The translations under genes were made by a program, and so were the position numbers. The notes below the pieces were generated by a model. It was not told where the DNA came from and did no database searches. It saw only the letters and a list, made by a program, of their open reading frames with translations. DNA of 49,341 nucleotides from sequence record SRR20825010_7068; one strand, 5' to 3'. Each line of letters starts with the position of its first letter. Positions within the stretch are counted from its first letter, which is position 1. This document shows positions 12,829-29,067 of the stretch, piece after piece.

Positions 12829-13956
12829 TTAATACCAGAGCGTAAACAGCAGCCGGGTTACGGTGGCATCAAAGCTGTACAAAGGCTCGGTACCGGGGGT
12901 GGTCTGTACCCGGATATCGCGGAAGTTATCGTAATCGAAATTGAAGCGGTCCACCCACAGGTGCAGGCCGGCCTTGCTGATGGTATTCCAGTTGGGTTTA
13001 CTGAACTGGAACCCCACCCCCAGGCCAATCACCGTGGATGAAAACTCGCTCAATTCCTTGTCACGGGCCAGGAAATTTTGGGCATTCTGAAACGGAAACA
13101 AGTCCGCATAAAAATCCGCATCGCCCTGCTGATAGCTCCGGTAACGGGTCTCCACCGTCCAGCTTTGTCCGATGGGTTGAATCAGTTGTAGCTGCCAGCT
13201 ATTGGCATCCACACCCCAGGAATCACTATAAATTCGGTATTCCCCGTGCAACCCGGCACGCCATGGCAGGTAATACGACAACCGGAGCGCCGTGGCGTCA
13301 CTGGTACGGGTATTGGGGTAGCGCTCTGGTTCAAAACTGTAGCTGTTGGGTGATGTCAGGTAGCGCACCGACCGGTAAGGGTTATTCAGGTAGCCCTCAT
13401 CGGTAATCAATTCATGGCCAATGCTACCGATCAGGTTTTTCGTCAGCACCTGACTCAAGCCAATACGAAAGTGTTGACGGTCCGCCTCTTCAGCGAAGCT
13501 GTTGTCGCCGGTACGGAACACTTCGTCCCAGCCTTTCGAATAGCCCAGGCTCAGGGTGGTCAGATCCCCGAAAAAATCCTGGCTCATGTCGAAGTGTACC
13601 GAGTTGGCTTCAAAGTCACTTTCTTCACTATTCCCGTAGCTCAGTGAATAAATGGCTTTGCCCGCCAGGTAATCGATGCCAACGCTTTTTTCGGTGCGCT
13701 CTTCTGAATAAGGGCTGGCACTGCTCACCACGTCAATGGAGGCCGCTGACACCTTGTCCACATAGTAATTGGCACGCACCGAGACTTTATCCGCAAAGGA
13801 CTTGCGCACCAGCACCGACGGTCCCTTGATATCCATGCCGCCACCATCGTAGGCATGGCGCAACACGTCCAGCCTGTCCTCCGGCAACACCGCCGCCAAC
13901 GCACTGGCCGTCAGCAGCCAGAGCACGCCGACGCGCAACCCCCACATCAGTTGCAT
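12829..13956 (-). CDS. DUF3570-family outer-membrane beta-barrel protein
   Basis: Signal peptide; VDKVSAASIDVVSSAS; GYLNNPYRSV..ERYP.TR; YRIYSDSWGV; RSYQQGDADFY; aromatic C-terminus; context with DUF4266, TlpA and ApbE. Confidence 0.8.
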   Translation of the reverse strand: MQLMWGLRVGVLWLLTASALAAVLPEDRLDVLRHAYDGGGMDIKGPSVLVRKSFADKVSVRANYYVDKVSAASIDVVSSASPYSEERTEKSVGIDYLAGKAIYSLSYGNSEESDFEANSVHFDMSQDFFGDLTTLSLGYSKGWDEVFRTGDNSFAEEADRQHFRIGLSQVLTKNLIGSIGHELITDEGYLNNPYRSVRYLTSPNSYSFEPERYPNTRTSDATALRLSYYLPWRAGLHGEYRIYSDSWGVDANSWQLQLIQPIGQSWTVETRYRSYQQGDADFYADLFPFQNAQNFLARDKELSEFSSTVIGLGVGFQFSKPNWNTISKAGLHLWVDRFNFDYDNFRDIRVQTTPGTEPLYSFDATVTRLLFTLWY

Positions 13957-14174
13957 CCGCAGCCTCCGCCAGCACTACCTTCTGCTCCGCGCATGGCTTC
14001 ACGGGCCTGATGCACGTGGTGCATGTAGTTATCCGATGCAGGGTTGGCTGCCGGATTCATCACCGGGTCGGCCAACCGGGCACGCTCGTAAGGCTTGAGC
14101 CAGGGTTGCACGGATGAACAGCCACTGCTCAGGGCAGCCGCAATCAACAGGGAAATCAGCGCGGTCTGTCGCAT
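13947..14174 (-). CDS. DUF4266-family small lipoprotein
   Basis: Lipobox-like LSSGC, VQPW..YER..LADPVM, REA..G..G..GGGCGCN C-terminus; overlaps the DUF3570 start. Confidence 0.85.
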   Translation of the reverse strand: MRQTALISLLIAAALSSGCSSVQPWLKPYERARLADPVMNPAANPASDNYMHHVHQAREAMRGAEGSAGGGCGCN

Positions 14175-14665
14175 TATTCGAGCACCAGTTCCTTCACTTC
14201 GGTCCGGTAGTGATCCATATAACCGTCCTTGTAGCCACGGTGGTGATAGCGCACCCTGCCATTGCGATCGATCAGGACCGTGGTCGGCATGGCATCCACC
14301 TGGTAGGTCTCACTGGTGTCGTTGGCCGGGTCGAACAGCACCGGGAAGCTCACGGGAATTTTATCCAGCAGCAGGTTGGCCTGATCCCGGTTTTCATCCA
14401 GGTTCACGCCGAGAATGGTAAAACCATAGTCGCGGTATTCCTGATAGAGCTCATCCAGCAAGGGCATTTCCGTACGACACGGGCCACACCAGGACGCCCA
14501 AAAGTTCAGCAACACCACCGTGCCGCGCAACTCGCTGAGCTTGATGTTCTCGCCACTACTAGATTTCAGGGTAAAGTCCGGCGCCGGGCCGGTTACATCC
14601 GCGCTCACCCCCAGGCTCCATACGCACAGCGCGCCACACAACACCCTTGTTAGCCATTTTCTCAT
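14174..14665 (-). CDS. TlpA/ResA-family thiol-disulfide oxidoreductase
   Basis: APDFTL, NFWASWCGPCRTEMP, cis-Pro loop AMPTT; signal peptide; ATG 14665 with GAGGGG RBS. Confidence 0.93.
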   Translation of the reverse strand: MRKWLTRVLCGALCVWSLGVSADVTGPAPDFTLKSSSGENIKLSELRGTVVLLNFWASWCGPCRTEMPLLDELYQEYRDYGFTILGVNLDENRDQANLLLDKIPVSFPVLFDPANDTSETYQVDAMPTTVLIDRNGRVRYHHRGYKDGYMDHYRTEVKELVLE

Positions 14666-14749
14666 TGTGCTTCCCCTCACTCTGTATTTGCTGCTTTTTT
14701 TATTCCGTTACGGCATGTTCTGACGACGCCTTACCGCGGCCAGCGATAA

Positions 14750-15418
14750 TCAGAAAAACACACCGATACCTGCCGTTAATTCCAGGTTATGGGTGGTTTT
14801 GTCTTCACCGAGCACATCCAGATTGAAGATGTGATCTTTCATGTCCACGCGCACCGTCATCCAGTCATTAATCAACAAACGGTAGCCCACGCCCAGACTC
14901 AGCGTGAACTGGTCATCGCCGGCGAAGTCCGTCATGCCGGCCCCGCCCATTAAATACAATGCATTGTTATAGGCACGGTTTTCCGACAGAAACGCCTCGC
15001 CCGGCAGCAGGTTGTAGCCCACGCCCACCTGGTAGTAGGTATATTCACGCTCATCATCAGTGAGCAGCTGCACACCCGCATTCAGGGTTTCAAAACTGGT
15101 TTCCCCGGCCTTGGAACGGCCCAGACTGCCTTCCAGAAATACATCCTCAGACAGGTGGTAATCCAGCCGCACCCCCAACACCGGGTCACTGCCGAAATCC
15201 TCAATGGAGAGAATGCCGGTGTAGAGGCCGATTTCGAAGTTTTCCGCATCGATATCCGCCTCTTTGATGTGGCGACGCTCGATACGGGGATCGAGTACGG
15301 ATTCCGCATCCGCATCCCGAACGGTAGTGTTGTTGTCACCCTCTTGTTCCGCCGCCAGACTTTGCAGTGGCAGCAGCAAGGATGCCGCTAAAACAGTACA
15401 GAGAAACCGAGTTTCCAT
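14750..15418 (-). CDS. Outer-membrane beta-barrel protein (OmpA-like small barrel)
   Basis: Signal peptide, alternating amphipathic strands, C-terminal LELTAGIGVFF beta-signal. Confidence 0.8.
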   Translation of the reverse strand: METRFLCTVLAASLLLPLQSLAAEQEGDNNTTVRDADAESVLDPRIERRHIKEADIDAENFEIGLYTGILSIEDFGSDPVLGVRLDYHLSEDVFLEGSLGRSKAGETSFETLNAGVQLLTDDEREYTYYQVGVGYNLLPGEAFLSENRAYNNALYLMGGAGMTDFAGDDQFTLSLGVGYRLLINDWMTVRVDMKDHIFNLDVLGEDKTTHNLELTAGIGVFF

Positions 15419-16149
15419 TCTTCCAAATTCCGGTTGTCGTCTTCCTGGGTAAACAGCACATAGCTACGGTACTCACCGCGCAGAACAAACCCCCGCGACA
15501 GGTAGGCTTTCAGGCCCGCCCCGGCGAAGGCAAAATTCTCATCACGGTTTTCCGGTGTCACCACCGTGGCACGGGGCTCGATTTTGGCGCGCCCGGTACC
15601 CAGCATGACATAGGGAGAAACCCGCCAACGCGGGAACATCTCGTGCTGCACGTTAATATCAATCAGTTTGTTGTTAGCGAAGGGGCCGCTGGCCTGAGTG
15701 AACATGGCTTCGGCGGACAGGTTCTCCGTCATCCGGTAACCCAGTGCAAACGCCAGAGAAGTCACTTCATCCAGTTCGCCCATCAGCACCGACGCCTGCC
15801 AGTGGCCGGCCTGGAATGCTTCCTGGCCCAGGTTTTTCATCTCCGGGGTTTGCTCGCTACCATCCAGGGTTGCCAGCAACGCTTCGCGAGGCACCCAGCC
15901 CACCCGGCCACGCACGGTGCTGACCTTGATCCAGCCGGCACGGCGATATTCCAGGGTCAGCGGGGCATCGCGCTCCACCACATGAAACACGGGATAACCG
16001 CGACCCGGGCCGGTGTGAATTTCCACAAACGGCTCCGCCACCTTGACGCGCACCGCCGCAGTATCCGATTTGGCATCGGCCTCAGTCTCGGGCTCAGCCC
16101 AGGCCGGAAGCACCGCCATCAGTGATAACAGAATTACAACAAGGCGCAC
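15388..16149 (-). CDS. Bacterial SH3 domain fused to an outer-membrane beta-barrel
   Basis: Signal peptide; EIHTGPGRGYPV..GWIKV..GRVGWV (SH3b); C-terminal barrel ending WKLGFSVLF; GTG start with AAAGGAG RBS. Confidence 0.8.
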   Translation of the reverse strand: MRLVVILLSLMAVLPAWAEPETEADAKSDTAAVRVKVAEPFVEIHTGPGRGYPVFHVVERDAPLTLEYRRAGWIKVSTVRGRVGWVPREALLATLDGSEQTPEMKNLGQEAFQAGHWQASVLMGELDEVTSLAFALGYRMTENLSAEAMFTQASGPFANNKLIDINVQHEMFPRWRVSPYVMLGTGRAKIEPRATVVTPENRDENFAFAGAGLKAYLSRGFVLRGEYRSYVLFTQEDDNRNLEEWKLGFSVLF

Positions 16150-16196
16150 CGGGTGCGTCTCCTTTCCAATACATGTCAGGGCGCGGGAAAGCCCGC

Positions 16197-18830
16197 TCAG
16201 TTTTCCGGCACCCGGAAGGGGTCGTTATACAGCTGCGCCCCCAGATCGATCCATTCGGCAATCAAGCGCTGCTCCGCCGCACTCAGCCAGCCTTCATGCA
16301 CGCCGCCAGAGGCGAAGCGATCAAAGAAAGCGCCGGAGTTACGTGCCTGCCCGGCCCGCACGGTAGCGGACACCGCCACCGTATCCGTGACGGGAATCGG
16401 GTTGCCATTGTTATCCAGAATCAACTCGCCGTCTTCATCGGTTTGGTAAACCACATTGCCTTCACCATCGGTGACGATAATCAGATTATCCACCAAAGCG
16501 CCGTCTTCCAGCGTCAGCTCGTTGTCGTTGAACAACAATTCCCGGTAACTGGTGAGCTGGTCCTGCTGGTCCGGTGACGCCTCACCAGTGAGCTCCAGCT
16601 GGGCAGGCGGCACTTGCAGGGCATTCATGGCATCGCGGCGGTTATGGCACGACGAGCAGGTACGATCTTCCATCACGCCACCCATATCGGCCACCCGGGG
16701 CAAATCCCAGATCGGCTGGATGTGATCTTCGTAGTGAATCACCGTCCGGCATTCCGGTTGCCATTGAGTCTGGCAGCCCACCGTGGCGGGAGCTGGAGTC
16801 TCCAGATCCTCATAGCTGAGCAAGAGTTCATCGGCCGGATCCGGCGCCGGATCACTCCAGGCGTCAAACGCCTGCATATTGATAGCCGGCCATTCGCTGT
16901 CCGGCAGGAAACGGGCAAGGGCCTGGGCCATGGTTTCCCCGGCATCGGCAAAGGGCACCACATCGGCGCGGCTGTTGGGGAACGGTTGGCCGGTGACCGG
17001 TGCGCCGTCATGGATCGATGGCGCCATACCATCGGTGCGCCCATGGGGCTGTGGATTGTTGGTTCGGTGGCAGCCCTGGCATTGCAGTGTTTCCCCGGGG
17101 CGCAAGTTCAACCAGGCTCCATGGCGGCTGAACACGGCCTTGCCGTCTGCATCCACCAGTTGCAGGCCCAGTGGTGCATCCGCCGGCACCCGGGCCCGCA
17201 CGGAACCATCCGGCTCCACCGGCACATAACCGACAATTTCCCGCATACCGAAGTTAGCTGCCCGACCAAACTGGGCTCCGCTGATATCGCGCACGTCTTC
17301 GTTGGGGATCAGAACACCTTTGGTGATACGCAGGAAACGCACCCGTCGCTGGTCCGGCGTGACCTGGGCCGGATCACTGAAATCCGCGATCGAGTTGATA
17401 CCCGGCAGCCCCGGGTTCATGAAATCGGAAAACCCGCCATCCAGATCGTAAACGCTGCGAATATCGATACGCGCCATATTGGCATCAGCCAGTGCGTCGT
17501 CCCGATCCGACACCGGCACCACGGCAGCCATGCTGCTAGCCGTGGCCACAGCCAGCTCCGTCACCCATAGCCCCTGCTGAGGCTGCACCACCGGCAACTG
17601 CGTTCCTTCTGATGGATTCAGAATCCATAGCCCGAAAGCCGGCTCGGCTTCCGGCAAACCCTGCTGCAAGTATTCGTCAGTACAGGGGCGCAACACCGCC
17701 CCGTCCTGCAAACGACACGGCGACCAGGCCATCAGGTAACGCCCGGTACCATCATTCAGACTGACCAGATCGGCCATGCGTCCGGTCACCGAGATATCTC
17801 CGGTCAGCGTGGTATCCGGGCCTGGCAGAGCTTGTTCTGCCTGCCCCGCCACCCGGCCAAACAGGGGGCCTTCACGATTAACGAAATTGTCGATATCAAT
17901 GGCCACCGGTTCCATTTGCCCGGCGGCAGTTTCACGTAGCCGGATGGCCGTTAGCAAACGGCCATCGCCCATAAACGATAACGGCAGAAACTCACGGCGG
18001 GTGTCGTCCGTGAGCGCGTGGCTCTCCGCCCCGTACAACGGCGTCAGCGCGGTCCCGTCCGGGTTTACCCGGTACAGGTCAAAGCGGTCTTCATTGTCCT
18101 TATTGTCCCAACGCAGGAACACCACCCGGCCATCTGCCTTCACCAGCGGCGCCACATCGTGGCTCATATTGAAGGTGATCTGCTGAATATCCGAGCCATC
18201 CGGCTGCATCACATGCAGGGCGAAAGCACTCACGTCGCGCCCCTCCTCAAGAGGATAAAACTGGGGTTTGCCTTCATCCAGCAGGCGAGCCCGGGCCTGA
18301 CGCTGACGAGTGGAAGAAAAAACAATGCGGCCATCGGGCAGGTAGGCGGGGTAACGGTCCTGGCCCTCTTCAGCCAGCAAATCACTGCTGATCAGACGGT
18401 GGATCACGCCGCCCTGAAAATCGTATTCCCAAACGTTCCAGGTAGGCTGCTCATCGTCATCCGCATCAGGGATTTCCGGTGCGCGGGCGGCAAACAGCAA
18501 TCGCGTCCCGTCCGGGCTGACACTGAGATCACGGATATCGTGGCCTGCACCCAGCCGCGCCGTGGTCACATCCCGGGCCTCAGCGCGGGATGAAGCACTG
18601 TCGCGCACCATCAAACGGGCACCGGCCTGGAACACCGCCGGATCTTCCAGTGTCTCCTGCGCCATCGCGTCCATGTCACCCTGGGGCGGGGTACGCTGCA
18701 CATAGGCCACCGGGATCTCGGTCACGGTCGGATCTTTTGCCTGCTCACTGCCGTCCAGGCCGCCGCAGCCACCAAGCGCTGCCAGCATCCCCAGCAGGCC
18801 GAGTCCCCCAATACGCTTTATTATTTTCAC
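16197..18830 (-). CDS. Lipoprotein: TolB/PD40 beta-propeller, hydrazine-synthase-alpha middle domain, two CxxCH heme-binding motifs
   Basis: Lipobox-like LGGC; SPDGTRLLFA, PAYLPDGRIVFSSTR, PDGSDIQQITFN repeats; GYVPVEPDGSV...VPAD..LQLVDADG..LRPGE..CQGCH (17067-17081); CSSCH (16644-16658)..EQRLIAEWIDLGA. Confidence 0.75.
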   Translation of the reverse strand: MKIIKRIGGLGLLGMLAALGGCGGLDGSEQAKDPTVTEIPVAYVQRTPPQGDMDAMAQETLEDPAVFQAGARLMVRDSASSRAEARDVTTARLGAGHDIRDLSVSPDGTRLLFAARAPEIPDADDDEQPTWNVWEYDFQGGVIHRLISSDLLAEEGQDRYPAYLPDGRIVFSSTRQRQARARLLDEGKPQFYPLEEGRDVSAFALHVMQPDGSDIQQITFNMSHDVAPLVKADGRVVFLRWDNKDNEDRFDLYRVNPDGTALTPLYGAESHALTDDTRREFLPLSFMGDGRLLTAIRLRETAAGQMEPVAIDIDNFVNREGPLFGRVAGQAEQALPGPDTTLTGDISVTGRMADLVSLNDGTGRYLMAWSPCRLQDGAVLRPCTDEYLQQGLPEAEPAFGLWILNPSEGTQLPVVQPQQGLWVTELAVATASSMAAVVPVSDRDDALADANMARIDIRSVYDLDGGFSDFMNPGLPGINSIADFSDPAQVTPDQRRVRFLRITKGVLIPNEDVRDISGAQFGRAANFGMREIVGYVPVEPDGSVRARVPADAPLGLQLVDADGKAVFSRHGAWLNLRPGETLQCQGCHRTNNPQPHGRTDGMAPSIHDGAPVTGQPFPNSRADVVPFADAGETMAQALARFLPDSEWPAINMQAFDAWSDPAPDPADELLLSYEDLETPAPATVGCQTQWQPECRTVIHYEDHIQPIWDLPRVADMGGVMEDRTCSSCHNRRDAMNALQVPPAQLELTGEASPDQQDQLTSYRELLFNDNELTLEDGALVDNLIIVTDGEGNVVYQTDEDGELILDNNGNPIPVTDTVAVSATVRAGQARNSGAFFDRFASGGVHEGWLSAAEQRLIAEWIDLGAQLYNDPFRVPEN

Positions 18831-18890
18831 CCGTTCATCCGTATTTCGTAGGTTTACATCAGTATCCCGAATATCTTCTTAAATTTCTGG

Positions 18891-18914
18891 GCGTCACTTC
18901 ACAGAGAGTGACGC
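18891..18914. promoter_or_regulatory. Perfect 8-8-8 inverted repeat in the divergent promoter region
   Basis: GCGTCACT-TCACAGAG-AGTGACGC. Confidence 0.45.
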
Positions 18915-19043
18915 AGAATGTCATACAGAATACTCACGGGATACGGGAAATCTGTTAAACGGTAATACCATTATCACTACTGGCTTGCCGGCGACCGCAA
19001 AATGCGGCCGCGGTGCTCATAGAGAACAACAAGGACCAAGCCC

Positions 19044-20219
19044 ATGAAAGGCTACCGGGGGATCATACTGATCGCACTTGCCATGGCGGTATCCGCCACA
19101 GCAACGGCAAACAGCCGGGATCAGGCTCAACGCATCCACAATCGGCTTGCCGGCGTACCGGCCGATGCCGCAACGCTGACCGAAATGGCGCAGCTGATTG
19201 ATAACAACCAGGTTGCCGAGGCCGCCGAACTGGCCATGGACAACCCGGCCTTCTATAACGTCACCATCAAGCAGTTTGCCACGCCCTGGACCAACGAAGC
19301 CCAGGACGTGTTCGCACCGCTCAACGACTACACCGCCACCATCATCGGTGTGGTCCGTGACGATGTGGACTTCCGCCGCATCCTCTACAGTGACCTGCTC
19401 TATGTGGGCAACACCAGCCCCGCGGCCTCTCCCTCCAGCAATGCCCATTATCAGGCGCTGGAAGATCAACATGCGGATCTCAGCACGGCACTCACTGAAA
19501 GCAGCCAGGCCAGCCAGTACGGTACCCCGGCAGAAGCCGTGGCCGGCGTCTTGACGACCCGCGCCGCTGCCAACGCCTTTTTCTACGCCGGCACCAACCG
19601 GGCCATGCTGCGCTTCACCCTGATGAATCACATGTGTCGTGACCTGGAGCAGGTCAAGGACACCAGCCGCCCCTCCGACCGCATCCGCCAGGACGTGAGC
19701 CGCAGCCCCGGTGGCGACAGCCGTATCTTCCGCAACAGCTGTATCGGCTGTCACAGCGGCATGGACCCGCTGGCCCAGGCCTTTGCCTACTACGACTGGG
19801 AAGGCGAACAGGAAGGCAATGGCGGCCGCATGGTCTACAACAGCGGCAACGATGCCGAGACCGGCACCCGGGTGCAGGGAAAATACCTGATCAACGGCAA
19901 CAACTTCCCCTGGGGCTATATCACCCCCGACAACAGCTGGGACAACTACTGGCGCAAAGGCCCCAATGCCAACCTGGGCTGGGATCCAAGCCTCCCCGGT
20001 AGCGGCGAAGGCGCCGCCAGCATGGGCAAGGAACTGGCCCACAGTGAAGTCTTTGCCACCTGCCAGGCAGAAAAAGTCTTCCAGACCGTGTGCCTGCGCA
20101 AACCCGCCGACGGCGCCGACACCGCCGAACTGGCCAGCATGACCAGCAACTTCAAAAACGATAACTACCGCATGAAAACCCTGTTTTCCGATGCGGCCAC
20201 CTACTGCATGGGGGAGTAA
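19044..20219 (+). CDS. Secreted c-type cytochrome-like protein (DUF1588/DUF1585-like)
   Basis: Sec signal ending ATA-N; RIHNRLAGVP; AGVLTTRA..TNRAM..HMC; CIGCH (19740-19754) followed by GMDPLAQAF; C-terminal FATCQAEKVF..YRMKTLF. Confidence 0.65.
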   Translation: MKGYRGIILIALAMAVSATATANSRDQAQRIHNRLAGVPADAATLTEMAQLIDNNQVAEAAELAMDNPAFYNVTIKQFATPWTNEAQDVFAPLNDYTATIIGVVRDDVDFRRILYSDLLYVGNTSPAASPSSNAHYQALEDQHADLSTALTESSQASQYGTPAEAVAGVLTTRAAANAFFYAGTNRAMLRFTLMNHMCRDLEQVKDTSRPSDRIRQDVSRSPGGDSRIFRNSCIGCHSGMDPLAQAFAYYDWEGEQEGNGGRMVYNSGNDAETGTRVQGKYLINGNNFPWGYITPDNSWDNYWRKGPNANLGWDPSLPGSGEGAASMGKELAHSEVFATCQAEKVFQTVCLRKPADGADTAELASMTSNFKNDNYRMKTLFSDAATYCMGE

Positions 20220-20222
20220 CGC

Positions 20223-22697
20223 ATGTCTTTTTTCCCGCTTACTTACCCTCGTAACGCCACCCTGTTCGCCAGCCTGCTGGTCGCCTTGCTCAGCGGCTGT
20301 GGCGGCAGCGGCAGCGGTGCCGACACACAACCGAACGTAGATACCGGAGGCAATGGTGGCGGCGTGAACTACAACGGTCCTGCGCCGCGCAACGCCGACA
20401 TCTCCGCGTTCAAAATCTATATCTGGAACAATCTGGTCAGTGAACAGCGCTGCGGCGCCTGTCACCGCAACCAGCAGCCCGCTTTTGTGCAAACCGGCAA
20501 CATCAACGACGCCTATGCCGCCGCCAATCCGCTGATCAACCTGAACCAGCCAGCGGCGTCGCGCATGGTGCAGAAAGTGGCCGGTGGCCATAACTGCTGG
20601 GAAGCGGACCCACAGGTCTGCGCCGACCAGATCAGCACGTGGATCAGCGCCTGGGCCGGAGAAACCCTGGGCCTGGGCGGCGGCACCACCGAGCTGGACC
20701 CACCACCCCTGTACGATCCCGGTGACAGCAAAAACTTCCCGGTGGACAGTGGGCTGTTCGAAACTACGGTGTACCCGTTACTGGAGCCGCATTGCAGCGA
20801 ATGCCACCAGAGCGATGCCGCCACCCCGCAGGCGCCCTACCTGGCCGCCGATGATGTGGACGAAGCCTACAGTGCCGCGCAAAGCAAAATTGACCTGAAC
20901 CAGCCGGCACTCAGCCGCCTGGTGGAACGCCTGCGCGAAGACAACCACAACTGCTGGAGTGACAGCTGCAGCAGCGATGCCGACGCCATGGAAGACGCCA
21001 TTCGCGCCATGGCCAACAACATTACCGCCACCGCCCCGGATGGCGACCTGGTGCTGAGCAAGGCGCTGACCGTGAACGACGGCACCTTGGCAGCCGGCGG
21101 CGGACGCTATGAAAGCAACGTGGTGGCCCGCTATGAATTCAAAACCGGTGAAGGACTCACCGCTTACGATTCCTCCGGCGTAGACCCCGCCATCCACCTG
21201 CAATTCAGCGGCGATGTGGCCTGGGAAGGCGGCTGGGGTATTCGCCTTAACGGTGGCAAGGCCCAGGGCAGCACCCAGACCAGCAAAAAGCTCACCGACC
21301 TGATTGCCGCCACCGGCGAACTGACTCTGGAAGCCTGGCTGGTACCCGCCAGCACTGGCCAGGATGATGCCCACATCATCAGTTACTCCGCTGGCACCAT
21401 GGCCCGCAACTTGACCCTCGCACAGAGTGGCAGCAACTACCTGGCCTACCAGCGCATCGGCGAAGCCACCGACAGCAACGGCGAGCCGGTACTGTCCACT
21501 GCTGACGATCCGCTGCAGGCCAGCCTCCAGCATGTGGCCATGACGTTTGACCCGGTAAACGGTCGCCAGATCTACATCAATGGCGAACTCAACGGGGCCA
21601 CCGACACGGTCCCCCCCGGCCTGCTCAACACCTGGGACGACACCTTCGCCCTGGTACTCGGCAACGAAGCCTCCAGCGACCGGCCGTGGGAAGGGGTGGT
21701 CCGTTTTGCCGCCATCCATAATCGCGCGCTCACTGGCGAACAGATCCGCACCAACTTTGCCGCCGGTGTGGGCGAGCGCTACTTCCTGCCCTTCTACATA
21801 GGCCACCTGATCGACCAGGAGGGCGCCTACCTGGTATTCGAAGTCTCCCGCTTCGACAACTACAGTTACCTGTTTGCCGCCCCCTACTTCATCAACCTGG
21901 AGCAGGATATCGTGGACACAGAAGTGGCCCTGCAAGGCCTGCGCCTGGGCGTTAACGGCCGCGTCCCTGACGTGGCCCAGTCCTTTGCCACGGTGGACAC
22001 CCTGATTGGCGGTGAAGGCTACAGCGAGCAGGGCGAAACCCTGTCTCGCCTGGGCACTCTGCTGCCCGTGGAGCAAGGCCAGGAGAACGATGAATTTTTC
22101 CTCACCTTCGAACGCCTGGGCAGCCACACCAATGTGCACACCGACCCGCAGCCCCTGCCACTGACACCCAACCAGTACGGCGAGCAACCGCTGCCCGGCC
22201 TGCGCAACTTTGCTGAAATCAACGCCACCATGAGCCAGCTCACCGGCGTCCCGGAAGGCTACGGCGAAGTGCCGGACACCTACCAGCGCCTGCGTGCCCA
22301 GCTGCCCAGTGAGGAAAATATCGAAGCCTTCCTCACGGCGCATCAAGTGGGGGTTGCACAGCTGGCCATCGAATACTGCAACGCGCTGGTGGAAGCGGAG
22401 CGTAGCAACGACGCCAGCATTCAGCCGTTATTCGTGGGCATGAATTACAGCGCCGGCGCCGACACCCTCAGCCAGCAGAACTGGAAAGACTGGGTCATTT
22501 CACCGTTGTATGAGCGCATGGTCGGTAACGGACAGGCCAGCCAGCCAGACCGTAATGGCGTGGAAAGCGAACTGGAAGACCTGCTGTTTAATACCAACCT
22601 GACCCAATGCAGCAGCGACTGCGTGGAGCGCACTGCCACCGCCACCAAAGCGGCCTGTGCCGCCATGCTGGGCAGCGCCACCATGCTGTTTCAATAA
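20223..22697 (+). CDS. Lipoprotein with two tandem CxxCH cytochrome-c repeats and a LamG/ConA-like domain
   Basis: Lipobox LLSGC plus Gly linker; CGACH (20451-20465) and CSECH (20793-20807); ARYEF..G..AYDSSG, LTLEAWL, HVAMTFD..QIYINGEL..LVLGN..AIHNRALT (LamG). Confidence 0.8.
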   Translation: MSFFPLTYPRNATLFASLLVALLSGCGGSGSGADTQPNVDTGGNGGGVNYNGPAPRNADISAFKIYIWNNLVSEQRCGACHRNQQPAFVQTGNINDAYAAANPLINLNQPAASRMVQKVAGGHNCWEADPQVCADQISTWISAWAGETLGLGGGTTELDPPPLYDPGDSKNFPVDSGLFETTVYPLLEPHCSECHQSDAATPQAPYLAADDVDEAYSAAQSKIDLNQPALSRLVERLREDNHNCWSDSCSSDADAMEDAIRAMANNITATAPDGDLVLSKALTVNDGTLAAGGGRYESNVVARYEFKTGEGLTAYDSSGVDPAIHLQFSGDVAWEGGWGIRLNGGKAQGSTQTSKKLTDLIAATGELTLEAWLVPASTGQDDAHIISYSAGTMARNLTLAQSGSNYLAYQRIGEATDSNGEPVLSTADDPLQASLQHVAMTFDPVNGRQIYINGELNGATDTVPPGLLNTWDDTFALVLGNEASSDRPWEGVVRFAAIHNRALTGEQIRTNFAAGVGERYFLPFYIGHLIDQEGAYLVFEVSRFDNYSYLFAAPYFINLEQDIVDTEVALQGLRLGVNGRVPDVAQSFATVDTLIGGEGYSEQGETLSRLGTLLPVEQGQENDEFFLTFERLGSHTNVHTDPQPLPLTPNQYGEQPLPGLRNFAEINATMSQLTGVPEGYGEVPDTYQRLRAQLPSEENIEAFLTAHQVGVAQLAIEYCNALVEAERSNDASIQPLFVGMNYSAGADTLSQQNWKDWVISPLYERMVGNGQASQPDRNGVESELEDLLFNTNLTQCSSDCVERTATATKAACAAMLGSATMLFQ

Positions 22698-22708: not shown

Positions 22709-24295
22709 ATGAAAAGAATGATGAAAAAACCACAGGCCTTGCACCCCGACGCCCCGCTTCTGAATCTGGGCCACGGCAAACCCATTAGCCGCCGCGACAT
22801 GCTCGGCCGCGGCCTGGTGTCCGGCGCGGCCTTCGGCAGCGTGGGCCTGCTGGGCCTGTTCAGTAACCCTCGCGACGCCATGGCGGCGTTACAGGGCGAC
22901 CTGGAAACCATCAAATCCGATTGCGGCATCCTCGGTGCCGGCGCCGGCAAGATCCCGTTCATCTGTTTCGACCTGGCCGGCGGCGCCAACATCGCCGGCT
23001 CCAATGTGCTGGTGGGAGGGCAGGGCGGCCAGCTGGATTTTCTCAGCAGTGCCGGCTACTCCAAACTCGGCCTGCCTGGCGGCATGGCCCCCAGCACCGA
23101 CCCCGGCGTCGTCAACACCGATTTGGGACTTGCCTTCCACAGTGACTCGCCCTTCCTGCGCGGCATTCAGGAAAAAGCCCCCGGTGCCATGGGCAACGTG
23201 AATGGCTGCGTGATTCCGGCCCGTTCCGAGAACGACACCGCCAACAACCCTCACAACCCCATGTACGGTATTTTCAATGCCGGCGCCGATGGCGAGTTAC
23301 TATCCCTGATCGGTTCACGCAGCTCCCTGTCCGGCGGCAACTCCATGTCACCGGACGGCTCCATCATCGCCTCCGCTCGCCCTACCAAGGTGGACCGTGG
23401 CACCGACGTGACCGGCCTGGTGGACACCGGCAAGCTGGTGGGTCTGCTCTCCAAGGACGATGCCGTGTCGGTGATGGAATCCATCGCCCGCATCAGCCAT
23501 AAACGCATCGACCGTATCGACAGCGGCCTCACCGATGCCAACCGCCGCGCTAATCTGCGCGACCTGCTGCGTTGCGGCTATGTAGAAGCGGCGGATATTA
23601 CCGATCGTTATGGTGACCCCTCTGCCCTGAATATTCGTCAGGACACGGACATCCTCAGCATCTTCTCCGAGTCAGAGTTGAATGATCGGGAGTTCGAAAA
23701 AACCGCCTCCATCATGAAGCTGGTGATCAATGGCTACGCCGGTGCCGGCTGTATCTCCATGGGCGGCTTTGACTATCACACCGGCGAGCGTGGCACCGGG
23801 GAAATCCGCGACCTGCGCGCCGGCCGCTGCATGGGCGCCTGCCTGGAATACGCCCGCCGCCGCAACATGCCGTTGATGATGTACGTGTTCAGCGATGGCT
23901 CCGTTTCCAGCAACGGGCGCATCGATGATTCCACCAACGGCCGCGGCAAAGGCGAGTGGACCGGCGACAACTCGTCCACCGCCGCCTCGTTCTTTCTGGT
24001 CTACAACCCCAACGGCCGCCCAACCCTGAACACCAACGGCGCCAGCGCCGAGAACCATCAGCAACTGGGCTGGATGCGCAGTGACGCCTCGGTGGAAACC
24101 GCCGGCACCCCGGCGGCCAACAACGTGAACCTGCTGGCGGAAACCGTGTGGTTGAACTACATGGCGTTGCACGGTGAAATCGGCCAGTTCAGCACCCGTT
24201 TCCCCAATCACAGCCTGGGCAACGCCGCTTCGCTGGACAAACTGGCCGCCTTCAACCCCATCGTCAGCGGCCCCGTCTTTCCTCCTCCCGCCTGA
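22709..24295 (+). CDS. Tat-exported protein of unknown function (DUF1501/DUF1552-like)
   Basis: SRRDML twin-arginine motif plus hydrophobic stretch ending AMA; ICFDLAGGAN; GGFDYH resembling DUF1501 GGWDTH; ATG 22709 follows the previous stop with AAGGGG RBS. Confidence 0.65.
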   Translation: MKRMMKKPQALHPDAPLLNLGHGKPISRRDMLGRGLVSGAAFGSVGLLGLFSNPRDAMAALQGDLETIKSDCGILGAGAGKIPFICFDLAGGANIAGSNVLVGGQGGQLDFLSSAGYSKLGLPGGMAPSTDPGVVNTDLGLAFHSDSPFLRGIQEKAPGAMGNVNGCVIPARSENDTANNPHNPMYGIFNAGADGELLSLIGSRSSLSGGNSMSPDGSIIASARPTKVDRGTDVTGLVDTGKLVGLLSKDDAVSVMESIARISHKRIDRIDSGLTDANRRANLRDLLRCGYVEAADITDRYGDPSALNIRQDTDILSIFSESELNDREFEKTASIMKLVINGYAGAGCISMGGFDYHTGERGTGEIRDLRAGRCMGACLEYARRRNMPLMMYVFSDGSVSSNGRIDDSTNGRGKGEWTGDNSSTAASFFLVYNPNGRPTLNTNGASAENHQQLGWMRSDASVETAGTPAANNVNLLAETVWLNYMALHGEIGQFSTRFPNHSLGNAASLDKLAAFNPIVSGPVFPPPA

Positions 24296-24300
24296 CCCGA

Positions 24301-24333: not shown

Positions 24334-24377
24334 TACACTGCGTTGACACTCTTGCTGACAACCCGAAGACAACTGCC

Positions 24378-25361
24378 ATGGTTTCGCTTACGCCTGTTGC
24401 CCGCCTGATCACGCTGTTCACACCTGCCCTGCTCCTGCTGCTGGCCATGCCGGCACAGGCCCAATGGCAACAACAGGACTGGGATGTGATGGGCACCCGG
24501 GCCAGCGTCACACTGTGGACCGAGCAGGATGCGGCGCCCTTGTTCGACGCGCTGAAAGAAGAAATGGCACGGCTGAATGCCTTGTTGTCCCCCTGGGTGG
24601 AGAGCAGCGAGCTGGCCCGGGTCAACGCCCATGCCGGCGAAACAACACAAACCATCAGCCTGGAGTTTTATCAGCTGCTGGTACGGTCTCTGGACTACTA
24701 TCAACTCACCGACGGCGCCTTCGACATTACCTTTGCCAGTGCTGGCCATCTGTACGATTACCGCAAAGGCAAGGCGCCGGACGATTCCGAGCTGGCCGCC
24801 GCGAACCAACATATTGGCGCCGACCGTATTGAGCTGACCGCACCGGACAAGGTGCGCTTCCGTGACCCCGGCACCCGTATCGATCTGGGCGGTATCGCCA
24901 AGGGGTACGCGATTGATCAGGGCATCGCCTTGCTGAAAGAGGCAGGCGTCAGGCACGCCTACCTGTCACTGGGCGGGGACAGTTATGTGCTGGGCGACCA
25001 CCGGGGTCGCCCCTGGGAAGTGGGCATTCAACACCCGCGCAGTAAAAAGGACATCGCCATGAAACTGCCCATGGCCGATCTGGCCATGTCCACCTCGGGG
25101 GATTACCAGCGTTACTTCATCCAGGACGGCCGCCGCATTCATCACATCCTGTCGCCGAAAACCGGTAAAAGCATCGATGGTCTGGCCAGCGTTACCGTGC
25201 TGTGTGACAACAGTATTGATGCTGACGCCCTGTCCACCAGCGTCTTTGTGCTGGGCGCCGAAAAAGGCCTGGCACTGATCAATCGTCTTCCCGGCACCTC
25301 GGCCATCATCATCGACCGGGAAGGTAACGTTACCTACTCCGATGACCTAACCGGCGGCTAA
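24378..25361 (+). CDS. apbE: FAD:protein FMN transferase (flavin trafficking protein); exact start uncertain
   Basis: VMGT, SELARVN, TDGAFDIT, IDLGGIAKGYAID, STSGDYQRYF, HHILSPKTG, DADALST. Confidence 0.93.
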   Translation: MVSLTPVARLITLFTPALLLLLAMPAQAQWQQQDWDVMGTRASVTLWTEQDAAPLFDALKEEMARLNALLSPWVESSELARVNAHAGETTQTISLEFYQLLVRSLDYYQLTDGAFDITFASAGHLYDYRKGKAPDDSELAAANQHIGADRIELTAPDKVRFRDPGTRIDLGGIAKGYAIDQGIALLKEAGVRHAYLSLGGDSYVLGDHRGRPWEVGIQHPRSKKDIAMKLPMADLAMSTSGDYQRYFIQDGRRIHHILSPKTGKSIDGLASVTVLCDNSIDADALSTSVFVLGAEKGLALINRLPGTSAIIIDREGNVTYSDDLTGG

Positions 25362-25456
25362 AAATCAGAAATCAGGTTGATGGCGGTATCGCCGGGTCTT
25401 TCGTTGAATGTCCGTCAGCGTGGCCAGAGTCGCGCCAATCTGCACTGGACCTTGTC

Positions 25457-26080: not shown

Positions 26081-26143
26081 AAACCCTCACCAACGCAGAA
26101 TGATGCGCAATGATGTTGAATGATGAACCCTGTCAGTCTACCG

Positions 26144-26641
26144 CTAGCCCGACCGATCCAGTGCCTCACCACATAACCGGCCCTGCTCCAACTGCAGACG
26201 CCAGACATCATGGTAATCCTCCGCTTGCGGAAAATCCGCCGCGCCGGCCAGGTAGAGACTGTCGTCCCGCAGGGTTTGGCCCACCAATAACGTGCCGGTA
26301 AAGCCAAGAGGAAGCTGCAACGCAGGATAGCGCCAAGGCAGCAGGCCGCCGCTCACCCGCTCCGCCGCCACCCCGTTGAGCGCGGGCCAGCGTGCCGGTG
26401 CGGTGATTATCTCGCCCTGTTCATCCACCCCGAGCAGCCCGCTTGGTGGTGCACACAGGGCCAGCTCTGCCAGGTACAGGGCACCGTCCTCAATCGCGTA
26501 ACGGCACACATAACCGCGCCAGCAATCGGAACTGTCGCCATCGGGATAAAGATCCCAGTCCGCCGGTGAAAACGCCGCACCACTGATCACATCGAACCCT
26601 TGCCCCCTGTGGTGCAAGGAATCCAGCTGTTGCGCAGTCAC
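26144..26641 (-). CDS. Hypothetical protein (MTAQ...CWRGY motif)
   Basis: Start overlaps the TPR stop (GTGA); protein-like composition with SSDCWRGYVCRYAIEDGALYL. Confidence 0.65.
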   Translation of the reverse strand: MTAQQLDSLHHRGQGFDVISGAAFSPADWDLYPDGDSSDCWRGYVCRYAIEDGALYLAELALCAPPSGLLGVDEQGEIITAPARWPALNGVAAERVSGGLLPWRYPALQLPLGFTGTLLVGQTLRDDSLYLAGAADFPQAEDYHDVWRLQLEQGRLCGEALDRSG

Positions 26642-28560
26642 CGGGATGACCCCATGGGCGGCTGCAACGGGAACTCGGGGGACTGGGGCGCGGCATCTGT
26701 CGGTGCCTGCTCACGCTCGCGGCTGCTGCGCAAGGCGCGATGGTAAAGATCGGCCAGCCCTTCATGGGCCGACGCACTGAAACGCTTCAGGCGGTTGCGG
26801 GTTTCGGTAACCTGTTCATAGGCCGACGCCTGCAATCCGTACTGTTGGCGACGCATCAACAGCGCCCCGCGTTGCTGCAAGCGTTCCAGCTCGCCGGTCA
26901 GGGCATTCAATTCCTGCGAGAAATCTTCCAGCCGCTCGGAGCGGTAGGTGGCAAACAGCACCCGGCTGCGCAGCACACGGGTCTGCTCCAGCAACCCATC
27001 GATTTCATTAAGCTGATGCTGGCGTTCCCACTGGCGCGGCACGATGTTTTCCTGCATTTCCCACAGCAAAACCCCTTTGTAGAAGTCCAGCTTGGCGGTC
27101 ACATCCGGGCGCTTTCGCTTGCCCCAGCCCTCGGTGCGCTGCTCGGCATTCTGCTGCGCCTCCCACAGCTTGTGCTCCTTGTCGGTGGCGAAAGGCAGCG
27201 GGTCCTGTTTGGCCACGGCTTCATCGTAGCGGCGCTGCAAACGGGTCATGCGCCCCTGGAAATCCTGCTGTGACAAATCGTCCAATAGCGCTCGGGCCGC
27301 AGGGCGGGTTTCATCCTGCTTACGCCGGTGGGCAGCCATCAGTGTCTCGAAGGCCGGCAGTTTTTCCTGCCACTGGGTCAGCAGATTCTTCTGCCGCAAG
27401 AGTTCGTGGTAGTTATTCCAGCCGCGCTGAAATTCGGTGGTGGCAAACCATTCATAGAAGGTCGGAAAGCTTTTCACCCGACGCGGCAGGAACGGCGGCA
27501 CCGGGTCCATGGCGGTGGACCAACGGGGCTCGCCCACCATGGCCGTGAACCATTCACCACTGGCAATATCCGCTTCCACTTCCAGCAGGTATTGCTGCAA
27601 ACCATCGAAGCGGTCCAGCGCGGTCTCGAATGCCTGTCTGGCAGAACGCTGATCGCCCATTTGCTCGTACAGGTAAGGAATCGCCAACTGCGCTTCCTGC
27701 ACCGGCAATCGCTGGATCGACTTGGTGTCCAGTTGCTGCAGGACCGGCAGCGCCTTGCGGGGCTGATTTTCAATCAACAGGGCGCGGGCATAGAGCAGCA
27801 GGGAAATGTCGGCAAACGGCCCTTCCAGGCGAGCGTCTCGCAACAGGGCCAGCGCACGGTCTTCCTGGTCGCTGCGCAACATGTAGATCGCCAGCGCCAG
27901 CATGGCTTTTTCCTTGATGGCATTGACCTGAGCATCCCCCGGCGGCATGTTTGCCAGCTGCCAGAGCCATTCCTGCCCCAACCCGGGGTGCTTGCCGTTA
28001 ATCCAGCTGATCGCCAGGTTATAGCGCAGGTAGGCATTGAGAGGATGGTCTTCGGAGAACGCATCAAGCAGCTCTGCAGCTTCTTCATAGCGTTGCAGAC
28101 GCATCAGGGTCCGCGCCCGCAAACTGAAATACACTTCTTCCAGTTTGGCTGGCGGCTCACCGACCTGCTGATCCAGCATGGTCAGTGCCTTTTCATATTT
28201 CTGCTGACGATAATAAAGACCGGCAAGGTGGATCCATGCCCGCTGGGCGACCTCACCGCTGACCTGGGTATCCAGTAGCTGGTTGAAAACCTGCTCGGCG
28301 TCTTCGGGCATGCCGTAGGCGCTGTACATGGCCCCCAGCAGCACTTCCATATCCCCCTTGTGGATATCCACCTCACCCCGCTCCAGCGCCATCTGGGCAC
28401 GGGTCAAGGCAGCAAAATAATCGCCTTTGAGATACAGATAGGCCACCTCACCATAGGCCAGCTCCTGCACCTGATGAGGTTCATCCAGCCGGGCCCAGCT
28501 CAGGGAACTGAGTAACAACAGCCCCACCACCAGCCCTTTCAAGCTTCCGCGCATTCGCAT
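26638..28560 (-). CDS. Secreted tetratricopeptide-repeat protein with C-terminal coiled coil (640 aa)
   Basis: Signal peptide ending SWA; repeated TPR-like helices (AWIHLAGLYYRQQKYEKALTML, AQLAIPYLYEQMGDQRSARQAFETAL); heptad-rich C-terminus. Confidence 0.85.
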   Translation of the reverse strand: MRMRGSLKGLVVGLLLLSSLSWARLDEPHQVQELAYGEVAYLYLKGDYFAALTRAQMALERGEVDIHKGDMEVLLGAMYSAYGMPEDAEQVFNQLLDTQVSGEVAQRAWIHLAGLYYRQQKYEKALTMLDQQVGEPPAKLEEVYFSLRARTLMRLQRYEEAAELLDAFSEDHPLNAYLRYNLAISWINGKHPGLGQEWLWQLANMPPGDAQVNAIKEKAMLALAIYMLRSDQEDRALALLRDARLEGPFADISLLLYARALLIENQPRKALPVLQQLDTKSIQRLPVQEAQLAIPYLYEQMGDQRSARQAFETALDRFDGLQQYLLEVEADIASGEWFTAMVGEPRWSTAMDPVPPFLPRRVKSFPTFYEWFATTEFQRGWNNYHELLRQKNLLTQWQEKLPAFETLMAAHRRKQDETRPAARALLDDLSQQDFQGRMTRLQRRYDEAVAKQDPLPFATDKEHKLWEAQQNAEQRTEGWGKRKRPDVTAKLDFYKGVLLWEMQENIVPRQWERQHQLNEIDGLLEQTRVLRSRVLFATYRSERLEDFSQELNALTGELERLQQRGALLMRRQQYGLQASAYEQVTETRNRLKRFSASAHEGLADLYHRALRSSREREQAPTDAAPQSPEFPLQPPMGSSR

Positions 28561-28569
28561 AGACCGCTC

Positions 28570-29067
28570 TCAGCGCCAGTCGCGAAAACGGAAACGCGGC
28601 TGCTGCTTGGCGGTATCGTCCTCGATATGAAGCTGAACGAAATGGCGGCCGTGATTCTTGTCGAAGTGGCCGGTCACCCCCTGGCGCATTTCCCGCCCGG
28701 CAGGCCCGGTGCCAGTGATAAAGGCAGTGAGCTCGTGGTCACCATTCTTCACGTTGGCCAGCGCCAGGCGCTGCACCGCACCGTTTTTCAGGGCGCGGAT
28801 CTCCTTTTCCGTGTAGAGATGGCTGGTCAGCACTTCGCCATCCAGCTCCAGCGTGATGCTGTCCGGCTGGAAAAAGTGCCCCACATCCAGAGAAACATAA
28901 ATCCCCACCTGGGTATCGGCGGGGAACAGCAACTCTTCTTCGAGCAATAGCAGGCGTTTATTGACTTCCAGCACGTCACGTTTGAAATCGGCCAGATCCT
29001 TGTCCAGCTCGGCCCCGTGCAGCTGGGCTGCGACCAGCATCAACAACAAAATGAATGCGCGGCGCAT
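28570..29067 (-). CDS. Secreted protein: N-terminal coiled coil plus Ig-like beta domain; co-transcribed with the TPR gene
   Basis: Signal peptide; LADFKRDVLEVNKRLLLLEEELLFP; ITLELDG..HLYTEKE..ALKNGAVQRL..GDHELTA; 9 bp from the TPR gene. Confidence 0.75.
   Translation of the reverse strand: MRRAFILLLMLVAAQLHGAELDKDLADFKRDVLEVNKRLLLLEEELLFPADTQVGIYVSLDVGHFFQPDSITLELDGEVLTSHLYTEKEIRALKNGAVQRLALANVKNGDHELTAFITGTGPAGREMRQGVTGHFDKNHGRHFVQLHIEDDTAKQQPRFRFRDWR

Follow-up and report, generated by a model that had tools for sequence, protein, structure and literature searches.

The window described here is a stretch of DNA of 49,341 nucleotides from sequence record SRR20825010_7068, and its subject is a gene cluster with ten exported genes between positions 12829 and 25361, six on the minus strand (g01 to g06, the left arm) and four on the plus strand (g07 to g10, the right arm). 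A secreted pair, the tetratricopeptide repeat (TPR) protein g13 and the small protein g14, lies beyond the right arm. The gene map was made from a map of the open reading frames (ORFs) together with family scans (Pfam, NCBIfam) of the window proteins, and the N-termini were inspected by eye for signal peptides and lipoboxes. Our best explanation, on which we are evenly balanced, is that a single copy of a conserved envelope system built of modules lies in the window. The system would be a motor-linked outer-membrane redox machine in which electrons pass from thiol to flavin to haem.

A preliminary description of this DNA had reported ten exported genes in two divergent arms around a 213-bp spacer, and this layout was reproduced gene for gene (Table 1). 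The stop codon of g02 overlaps the start of g01 by 10 nt. Five CxxCH motifs are found in three proteins, with no more than two in any one of them, together with the WCGPC motif of g03, the CxC tail of the DUF4266 lipoprotein g02 and the RR motif of g09, the protein with a signal for twin-arginine translocation (Tat). The first three of these, and a Tat protein, had been pointed out before. The conservation of the CxxCH motifs had been named as a point to check, and neither these five nor WCxxC, the CGC tail or RR vary in 41–81 aligned orthologues, gaps aside. The three outer-membrane barrels of the preliminary description are also borne out, two by matches of g04 and g05 to the Pfam family OMP_b-brl and the third by the AlphaFold2 model of the DUF3570 protein; with three lipoproteins, none of which has Asp at position +2 (by eye), they fit the outer-membrane location that was proposed. 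The secreted TPR pair is real, and a LysE-type gene and a 165-aa ORF lie between it and the ApbE gene.

Table 1. Features of the gene cluster in the window. The last column gives the number of loci with a tblastn match among 80 loci searched with 14 window proteins; the loci are described in the text.
Feature	Position	Strand	Family match or remark	Loci with match (of 80)
g01, DUF3570 outer-membrane beta-barrel	12829..13956	-	PF12094, 8.5e-38	56
g02, DUF4266 small lipoprotein, tail GGGCGCN	13947..14174	-	PF14086, 1.5e-19	58
g03, exported TlpA/ResA-like thiol:disulfide oxidoreductase, WCGPC	14174..14680	-	AhpC-TSA 2.3e-30, Redoxin 2.6e-27	60
g04, small OMP_myx_plus barrel, acidic N-terminal extension	14750..15418	-	TIGR04565, 2.1e-52, over cut-off	58
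g05, SH3 domain and small outer-membrane barrel	15388..16149	-	OMP_b-brl 1e-8, SH3_4 2.3e-6	58
g06, 877-aa lipoprotein, PD40 propeller and HZS_alpha domain	16197..18830	-	PF18582, 3.9e-17	65
Divergent intergenic spacer, 213 bp	18831..19043	.	contains a conserved block in Alcanivorax loci	
g07, 391-aa secreted mono-haem protein, CIGCH at 233	19044..20219	+	weak PSD2/DUF1585, 1.3e-4	71
g08, 824-aa di-haem LamG lipoprotein, conserved C-terminal domain	20223..22697	+	Laminin_G_3, 6.5e-21	80
g09, Tat-exported, alkaline-phosphatase-superfamily fold	22709..24295	+	longest ORF from 22607; 22709 is the probable start	
g10, exported ApbE (flavin adenine dinucleotide (FAD):protein flavin mononucleotide (FMN) transferase)	24378..25361	+	PF02424, 4e-82; longest ORF from 24174; 24378 is the probable start	
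LysE-type exporter gene, between ApbE and g13	25457-26080			4
165-aa ORF	26144-26641		no family match or export signal	2
g13, 640-aa secreted TPR and coiled-coil protein, GltC-like (position, size)	26638..28560	-	TPR families	33 (beside the cluster)
g14, 165-aa secreted protein, always precedes g13	28570..29067	-	no match in the family scans	34

The DUF3570 protein scores 130.7 bits against the PF12094 cut-off of 25 and models as an outer-membrane barrel. Its AlphaFold2 model has a predicted local distance difference test score (pLDDT) of 90.4 and is all-beta with 17–18 strands; the best structural matches are the barrels of PelB, PgaA and BcsC (Z 20.9, 20.2 and 18.7), followed by porins, and some homologues have a Porin_4 match. 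Two adjacent candidate FMN-attachment sites, DKVSAAS (67–73) and DVVSSAS (75–81), were found in g01. Across 41 aligned sequences no variation is seen at D67, A72, S73, D75, V76 or S81, and 40 of them have A80. In each site the D at -3, the alanine and the last S are essentially invariant. In the model the site loop (72–82) lies between the third and fourth strands (58–71 and 83–98); should the N-terminus lie in the periplasm, as it does in other barrels, the loop may be on the outer side or folded into the lumen. In some genomes high-scoring DUF3570 matches occur in open frames of 860–964 aa, about twice the usual length (G341:C1:4568616-4570127, G396:C84, G250:C173, G205:C7 and G167:C44), which suggests fused forms.

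The GGGCGCN tail of DUF4266 is invariant in 56/56 sequences. Pairwise complex modelling had been proposed in the preliminary description, and DUF4266 with DUF3570 was the one pair run. Mature DUF4266 with DUF3570 gave a score of 0.86 against 0.01 for the best control, a mark attained by 51/78 solved complexes and by 2/108 mismatched pairs, and the runs agreed in at least 71% of the contacts with a partner pLDDT of at least 66. The contacts of DUF4266 are with alternate residues of the strands around the whole DUF3570 barrel, and DUF4266 is therefore predicted to sit inside the DUF3570 lumen.

Outer-membrane complexes with a plug inside a barrel are known from the porin-cytochrome MtrAB and from LptDE. 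DUF4266 would likewise occupy a barrel lumen and might relay electrons, or a signal, through the outer membrane. Unlike in MtrAB, the redox groups here would be the Cys-Gly-Cys tail and covalent FMN, with no deca-haem protein and no 26-strand barrel. The match of the DUF3570 model to the Mtr barrel is generic (6r2q_B, Z 14.6, root-mean-square deviation 8.4 over 294 aligned residues). With at most two CxxCH per protein, 17–18 barrel strands and no multihaem protein, a conduit of the Mtr or Pcc type was rejected, in agreement with the unlikeness to these systems that had been noted before.

The thiol:disulfide oxidoreductase g03 has as its best NCBIfam match the ResA subfamily (6.4e-35, below cut-off), and its WCxxC is kept in 61/61 sequences. 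The barrel gene g04 is the sole gene over the TIGR04565 cut-off in each of 5 genomes searched, and g05 has a weak match to the same model (4.8e-9). The propeller lipoprotein g06 carries c-haem motifs at 584 (CQGCH) and 725 (CSSCH), both invariant in orthologues apart from gaps, and its PF18582 match is over the cut-off. A profile of 33 g06 orthologues matches the alpha subunit of hydrazine synthase (5c2v_A, E 3.6e-17). The two are collinear in architecture: the alignment is significant over the propeller, over the middle domain that holds the first CxxCH and over the C-terminal helix, and the segment with the second CxxCH aligns in a non-significant stretch only. In contrast to the alpha subunit g06 is a lipoprotein of an aerobic host, and it reaches 49 bits against the 800-bit cut-off of NF052339. 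Among the cluster proteins no peroxidase or MauG-like family match was found that could stand for the beta or gamma partner. Hydrazine synthesis as the function was rejected, since the equivalog score is not reached and the beta/gamma partner is absent. More than 600 structural homologues of the alpha subunit are known, none of them with a proven function in the part of that literature available to us.

In the right arm, the PSD2 match of g07 (22 bits) falls below the Pfam cut-off of 25.8. Among 38 of its orthologues 32 match PSD2 at E<=0.01, the best at 2.4e-6, and 3 match PSCyt3; the CxxCH is kept in 69/69 sequences, and a sequence search of solved structures with g07 gave no match. The second cytochrome, g08, has its c-haem motifs at 77 (CGACH) and 191 (CSECH). 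All 38 of its orthologues examined match LamG_3 and 17 match Cytochrome_CBB3, a class-I cytochrome c model; no PSCyt or PSD match was found for g08, and in solved structures its sequence finds a sialidase LamG-like module only. The nearest genome (G001) has two ApbE genes, and g10 corresponds to the second of them, as would suit a dedicated role.

The Tat protein g09 belongs to a family of ~1230 clusters at 50% identity. No Pfam match was found in 57 family members, and DUF1501 (PF07394) was matched by 0/57. The AlphaFold2 model (pLDDT 86.6) was compared with known structures: in a VIA search all 50 matches listed are chains of the alkaline-phosphatase superfamily (Z 9.1–11.9), and Foldseek gave no match at E<=0.001. 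A sequence search of solved structures returned just biased WD40/importin and weak Tat-signal matches. An hhalign comparison with 8 DUF1501 proteins gave a probability of 69% and an E of 4.4e-5, with GG[YF]DYH aligned to GGWDTH; this motif and the RR are invariant in 81 sequences. On profile evidence g09 is a distant DUF1501 relative, DUF1501-like yet outside the Pfam model. The public name of the family, 'general secretion pathway protein GspF', was rejected because g09 has a Tat signal, a phosphatase-type fold and no membrane-protein features, and the label looks like a propagated annotation error.

When one genome per species was scanned with g09, at least 577 relatives came up, and 80 loci were kept from these. 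These come from Alcanivorax (83–97% identity) and, at 56–66% identity, from Shewanella maritima, Marinobacter, Colwellia, Thiodiazotropha, tubeworm symbionts, Sedimenticola, Paraglaciecola, Alteromonas, Microbulbifer, Ketobacter and Steroidobacteraceae. The full order, g01 to g06 on the minus strand and then g07 to g09 on the plus strand, is kept in 55/80 loci from many gammaproteobacterial lineages, and most of the others stop at a contig or flank limit. Conservation of the neighbourhood was a check put forward in the preliminary description, which would have given way if the genes failed to co-occur elsewhere; as they co-occur in many lineages, that objection falls. The ApbE gene is often the last of the right-arm operon, as in the window.

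Co-occurrence was counted in a class sample of 401 genomes (400 in the search for GltD-like genes); the genomes of such a sample are related, and the counts are therefore not independent events. The g09 gene is present in 48/401 genomes and DUF3570 in 91/401, a count that includes one genome flagged as unpublished (G040) which enters no other claim. Both are found in 46 genomes, that is in 46 of the 48 with g09, and they lie within 15 kb of each other in 28. The earlier claim that the two arms belong together agrees with these counts and with the synteny across lineages, and also with the fact that DUF3570, the sole recognisable ApbE substrate family in the cluster, is on the arm opposite ApbE. 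In one genome (G332) the genes form a single-strand operon in the order g07, g08, g09, ApbE, g06 to g01, with a Glt-like set divergent from it. Eight classical, high-scoring DUF3570 loci have TlpA in 7/8 and ApbE in 5/8 and contain none of g04 to g09, g13, g14 or the motor genes. As TlpA is kept at these loci, which have no cytochrome homologous to g06 to g08, it goes with DUF3570 and not with the cytochromes.

Some loci carry further genes at the end of the right arm. In Thiodiazotropha-type loci (L021, L041, L054, L060, L061 (~11.6-14 kb) and L094 16743-18700) genes for a second prolipoprotein diacylglyceryl transferase (Lgt, PF01790) and for a DUF3187 outer-membrane protein lie between g09 and g14, and some of them add an exported isoaspartate methyltransferase-like gene (by eye). 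Steroidobacteraceae-type loci (L027, L030, L033 and L048, just after g09) and one further genome (G386, L119 8363) have a second TlpA-like gene between g09 or ApbE and g14.

In many loci g09 is followed by g14, g13, a gene for a ~950-aa TPR lipoprotein, ExbB, ExbD, ExbD and a TonB-like gene; in L014, L018 and L020 ApbE is the last of the string. Longer stretches were fetched for 18 of the 28 genomes with g09 and DUF3570 within 15 kb, long contigs being preferred, and one contig (G049) was too short. The Glt-like set adjoins the cluster in 15 of the 17 assessable genomes; the two without it nearby are G253 and G263, and in the latter a GltD-like gene lies ~21 kb off. The set is attached after g09 in 7 genomes, after g01 in 7 and divergently in G332. 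That the linkage outlasts rearrangement speaks for a common function. GltD-like genes (E<=1e-40) were found in 77/400 genomes and in 46/48 of those with g09. Such a gene lies within 25 kb of DUF3570 in 36 genomes, 9 of them without g09, and several genomes have two GltD-like genes, one by the redox cluster and one elsewhere.

The loci of 8 of these 9 genomes without g09 were fetched, and in all of them the left arm and the motor set are on one strand, as a full string in 4/8 and a partial one in the other 4. The full string consists of ApbE, a g06-like gene, g05, g04, TlpA, DUF4266, DUF3570, g14, g13 and the GltD-like gene, and continues with ExbB, ExbD, ExbD and a TonB-like gene where the stretch reaches. 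As the left arm and motor are found here without g07 to g09, the basic unit is the left arm with the motor, and g07 to g09 are an add-on.

The nearest genome, G001, has a complete eight-gene set on its contig C19 (L082 7231-16533), encoding proteins of 172, 642, 981, 263, 230, 176, 166 and 329 aa in this order. Window g14 shares 35% identity with the 172-aa first protein (E 6e-35), and g13 shares 26% with the first TPR protein, of 642 aa (E 3e-37). The TonB-like protein of the set matches NF033768 (AgmX/PglI C-terminal domain) at 4.8e-16 with 58.7 bits over a cut-off of 40, and NF033760 (GltG) at 1.9e-14 with 53 bits against a cut-off of 650; for the 263-aa TPR protein, GltE (5.8e-10) is one of the TPR models matched. 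With g14 and g13 in the window and this set on another contig, Alcanivorax, to which the window belongs, keeps a dedicated g14/g13 pair beside the redox cluster and the rest of the motor elsewhere. The TPR pair ties the cluster to a core of the Agl-Glt type (TPR proteins, ExbB, two ExbD and a GltG-like TonB).

Parts of this system have been described before, and the word 'undescribed' in the preliminary description was too strong. Genes for ApbE, for DUF3570, for a thioredoxin-like protein and for DUF4266 were grouped as 'DsbD systems', 227 with DsbD and 316 without, and a Chlorobium DUF3570 protein was found to be flavinylated at two serines by its cognate ApbE, its function being called uncertain (Meheust et al., 2021; PMC8238504; this and the papers cited below are drawn on in part). 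The window cluster resembles these widespread clusters in having the four families together, two candidate serine sites, the C-terminal CxC of DUF4266, an exported ApbE and, as in 316 of theirs, no DsbD gene alongside. It differs in that g03 matches AhpC-TSA/Redoxin and not PF13899, the family named by Meheust et al., and in that window-type DUF3570 proteins form a divergent subtype, which scores ~95–140 bits with partial coverage of the Pfam model, whereas classical full-length ones reach ~290–450 bits. Window-type clusters also add two small barrels, three haem proteins, the Tat enzyme and the link to the Agl-Glt-type motor. The DUF4266/DUF3570/TlpA neighbourhood is mentioned in passing in one further paper.

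The right arm also has described relatives. In Planctomycetes and Verrucomicrobia, PSCyt/PSD cytochromes, often with LamG_3, are encoded with Tat-exported DUF1501 or DUF1552 proteins, and the function of these modules in bacteria of the PVC group (Planctomycetes, Verrucomicrobia, Chlamydiae) is given as not known in the sections available (Kamneva, 2012; PMC3542564; He, 2017; PMC5615132). The likeness lies in the secreted CxxCH proteins, one of them with LamG_3, beside a Tat enzyme-like protein, and in the PSD2-like C-terminus of g07; the differences are the gammaproteobacterial host, the single copy and the coupling to a flavin module, and the relation of g09 to DUF1501 at profile level only. 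Judged by its families, the right arm appears to be a divergent copy of these PSCyt/LamG cytochrome and Tat DUF1501-like modules.

As to the motor, a gammaproteobacterial 'core complex' of gltC, gltD, gltE, gltG, aglR, aglQ, aglS and an extra gene was reported with a function 'not known' and with an Alcanivorax strain in the trees (Luciano, 2011; PMC3169522). In Table S3 of that paper the Marinobacter entries are a GltG homologue of 324 aa, two ExbD, a single ExbB and TPR proteins with lengths of 189, 952 and 648 aa; in the part of this table available to us no match was found for the 'additional gene'. The sets of the window's relatives, with TPR proteins of ~640, ~950 and 190–260 aa, ExbB, two ExbD and a ~325-aa TonB-like protein, agree in order and sizes with Maqu_1807-1814. 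The available parts of Luciano (2011) and Islam (2020, bioRxiv) make no mention of a linkage to DUF3570, haem or thiol genes. In Myxococcus, barrels (GltA/B/H), a lipoprotein (GltK) and a TPR protein (GltC) make up the outer-membrane platform, which exposes the propeller-domain lipoprotein CglB (Islam, 2020). A parallel of g04/g05, DUF4266, g13 and g06 with the parts of this platform is suggestive because of the family name OMP_myx_plus, the single match per genome of g04 and one look-alike cluster found in Myxococcota. We found no paper that joins the DUF3570 module to HZS-alpha- or PSCyt-like cytochromes or to the Agl-Glt core, and the supplementary tables of Meheust et al., which lie outside the part covered, may list such cases.

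In an alignment of 7 Alcanivorax loci the spacer between the two arms has a mean column identity of 72% with invariant runs near CACAG and GAATGTC. This conserved block is a candidate operator for some regulator; the window copy has an inverted repeat, GTCACT...AGTGAC. A consensus scan found no sigma-70 promoter in the spacer, and the whole region has no more sites than shuffled sequence. Four RNA libraries (X2, X3, X4 and X10), which come from three studies, have contigs that cover the two arms in 30, 30, 28 and 22 of 30 bins. They were rejected as evidence for transcription or co-regulation, as they cover the unrelated flank about as deeply, a single contig spans the divergent spacer and carry-over of DNA is possible.

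The flanks of the cluster are unrelated to it: phospholipase A1 and acyl-CoA dehydrogenase genes border it at one end, and genes for LEA_2, an AraC regulator and a flavin monooxygenase at the other. The loci with a LysE gene or the 165-aa ORF are all Alcanivorax. Further away in the window, 1-1575 is inside a non-ribosomal peptide synthetase gene (condensation and AMP-binding domains) and 42621-43844 encodes a flavohaemoglobin (globin, FAD and nicotinamide adenine dinucleotide (NAD) domains), both unrelated to the cluster. The phospholipase A1 and DUF3570 genes are convergent, and the stretch that separates them (12725-12828) is made up of short repeats, in which CCAACACGG occurs ~3 times and is followed by GGTGCGT ~3–4 times; a contig of library X2 differs here by 12 listed small deletions, and run X4 has a depth of more than 1100 on ~30 bases. 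These signals are probably low-complexity cross-matching or a strain-variable terminator.

ApbE moves FMN onto serine or threonine of exported proteins, TlpA-type redoxins receive electrons through DsbD or CcdA, CxxCH marks the attachment of c-haem, and Tat exports folded proteins. Stators of the ExbB/ExbD type draw on the proton gradient and act, by way of TonB-like proteins, on partners in the outer membrane. The system can be divided into three modules. Module A would be the flavinylated DUF3570 barrel with DUF4266 in its lumen, served by the TlpA-like periplasmic reductase and the dedicated ApbE, together with the small barrels g04 and g05 and the HZS-alpha-like di-haem propeller lipoprotein g06. 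Module B, which is optional, would consist of the mono-haem PSD2-type g07, the di-haem LamG lipoprotein g08 and the alkaline-phosphatase-fold Tat enzyme g09, and module C of the Agl-Glt-type core, that is g14, three TPR proteins, ExbB, two ExbD and the GltG-like TonB. Reducing equivalents would come from DsbD in the inner membrane to TlpA, and from there to the Cys-Gly-Cys tail of DUF4266 inside the barrel, to the two FMNs on the DUF3570 loop and to the c-haems of g06 and, where present, g07 and g08. At the outer membrane the haems may then turn over some substrate, which would be acted on or held by g09 and the LamG domain. The proton-driven motor may gate, assemble or expose the outer-membrane platform, as Agl-Glt does for CglB in Myxococcus.

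A more specific version of this, which we regard as doubtful though worth stating, is that the Agl-Glt core is the engine of the redox machine, giving motor-gated electron transfer or haem-enzyme exposure across the outer membrane without multihaem cytochromes. The ExbB/ExbD/GltG-like motor would work the platform through the TPR scaffolds, and the platform would be the flavinylated barrel plugged by the Cys-Gly-Cys lipoprotein, two GltA/B-like barrels and the propeller-haem lipoprotein in the role of CglB. The gammaproteobacterial Agl-Glt core is in this reading the forerunner of the gliding and spore-coat motors of Myxococcus.

Several observations weigh against the redox machine. The candidate sites of g01, SAAS and SSAS, differ from the published [S/T]GA[S/T] by having A or S in place of G; at this position the aligned sequences have S, A or T, with G in just 1–2/41. 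The site loop has a pLDDT of ~51, and its membrane side is not fixed by the model. No DsbD family match was found among the window ORFs scanned, and in the nearest genome DsbD is on another contig. The window contains just g13 and g14 of the motor set, and the only GltD-like match of the nearest genome is in the set on its other contig. Among the sampled genomes 14 have a GltD-like gene with neither a DUF3570 match nor g09, and 28 have DUF3570 and no GltD-like gene. Nor are the arms always together: two loci (L057 and L077) have the upstream sequence and lack the left arm, a complete genome (G045) has g07 to g09 and a partial match to g06 with no DUF3570 or GltD-like gene, and in another (G398) g07 to g09 are far from its DUF3570. 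The direction of electron flow is a guess and may be the reverse. An alkaline-phosphatase-fold enzyme and a LamG protein have no obvious place in a plain electron chain, and the likeness of g06 to HZS-alpha hints at small-molecule catalysis over mere electron transfer.

One other possible explanation is that g07 to g09 are a self-contained unit of cytochrome, LamG and phosphatase-fold proteins, like that of PVC bacteria, that merely adjoins the DUF3570 module. This fits the four cases above in which g07 to g09 have no DUF3570 nearby, the left arm with motor that does without g07 to g09 in 8/8 fetched loci, and the PVC modules of PSCyt and DUF1501 genes, which stand alone in the accounts available to us. 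We consider it unlikely, as DUF3570 and a GltD-like gene each accompany g09 in 46/48 genomes, the divergent arrangement is kept in 55/80 loci, the ApbE at the end of the right arm has DUF3570 as its only recognisable substrate here, and G332 has all the genes on one strand.

Other explanations keep the genes together and change their purpose. The cluster may serve TonB-type uptake or iron acquisition, the flavin and haem proteins processing for example Fe(III) at the surface and the ExbB/ExbD/TonB-like proteins importing the product through one of the barrels. ExbB, two ExbD and a TonB-like gene are linked to the cluster in 15/17 genomes, the hosts are mostly marine, and Meheust et al. (PMC8238504) report, in the part available, 25 DUF3570 clusters with the iron transporter VIT1 and general links of flavinylation with iron. 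Yet when the flanking ORFs of the loci were clustered after masking the known genes, no 22-strand TonB-dependent receptor, inner-membrane importer or siderophore gene was conserved, no convincing Fur box was seen by eye in the spacer, and the TonB-like protein matches the GltG/AgmX type and not TonB, which makes uptake quite unlikely. Biogenesis alone, with TlpA, like ResA or CcmG, keeping apocytochrome cysteines in the reduced state and the barrels and lipoproteins forming a structural Glt-like platform with no redox output, would suit the best (below cut-off) NCBIfam match of g03, the five haem-attachment sites and the non-redox GltA/B/H/K/C platform described in the available text on Myxococcus. 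It is very unlikely in our judgement, because TlpA accompanies DUF3570 in 7/8 classical loci that lack cytochromes of the g06 to g08 type, and because the invariant FMN-site residues, the CGC tail and the dedicated second ApbE argue for a working redox centre.

New in this work are the barrel model of DUF3570, the predicted position of DUF4266 in its lumen, the collinearity of g06 with HZS-alpha and the link between the TPR pair and the Agl-Glt core. Three orphan systems are found wired together in these loci: the flavinylation of DUF3570, where the modification is known and the job is not; the planctomycete-type cytochrome and Tat-enzyme modules, unexplained since 2004–2012; and the gammaproteobacterial Agl-Glt core. 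Culturable carriers exist in Alcanivorax, Marinobacter xestospongiae, Shewanella maritima, Microbulbifer harenosus, Paraglaciecola arctica and Alteromonas nitratireducens. As all three systems are present in culturable bacteria, one set of knock-outs with membrane biochemistry could address the three of them. The path from thiol to flavin to haem would, if true, be an electron route to the outer membrane that differs from the conduits of the Mtr type.

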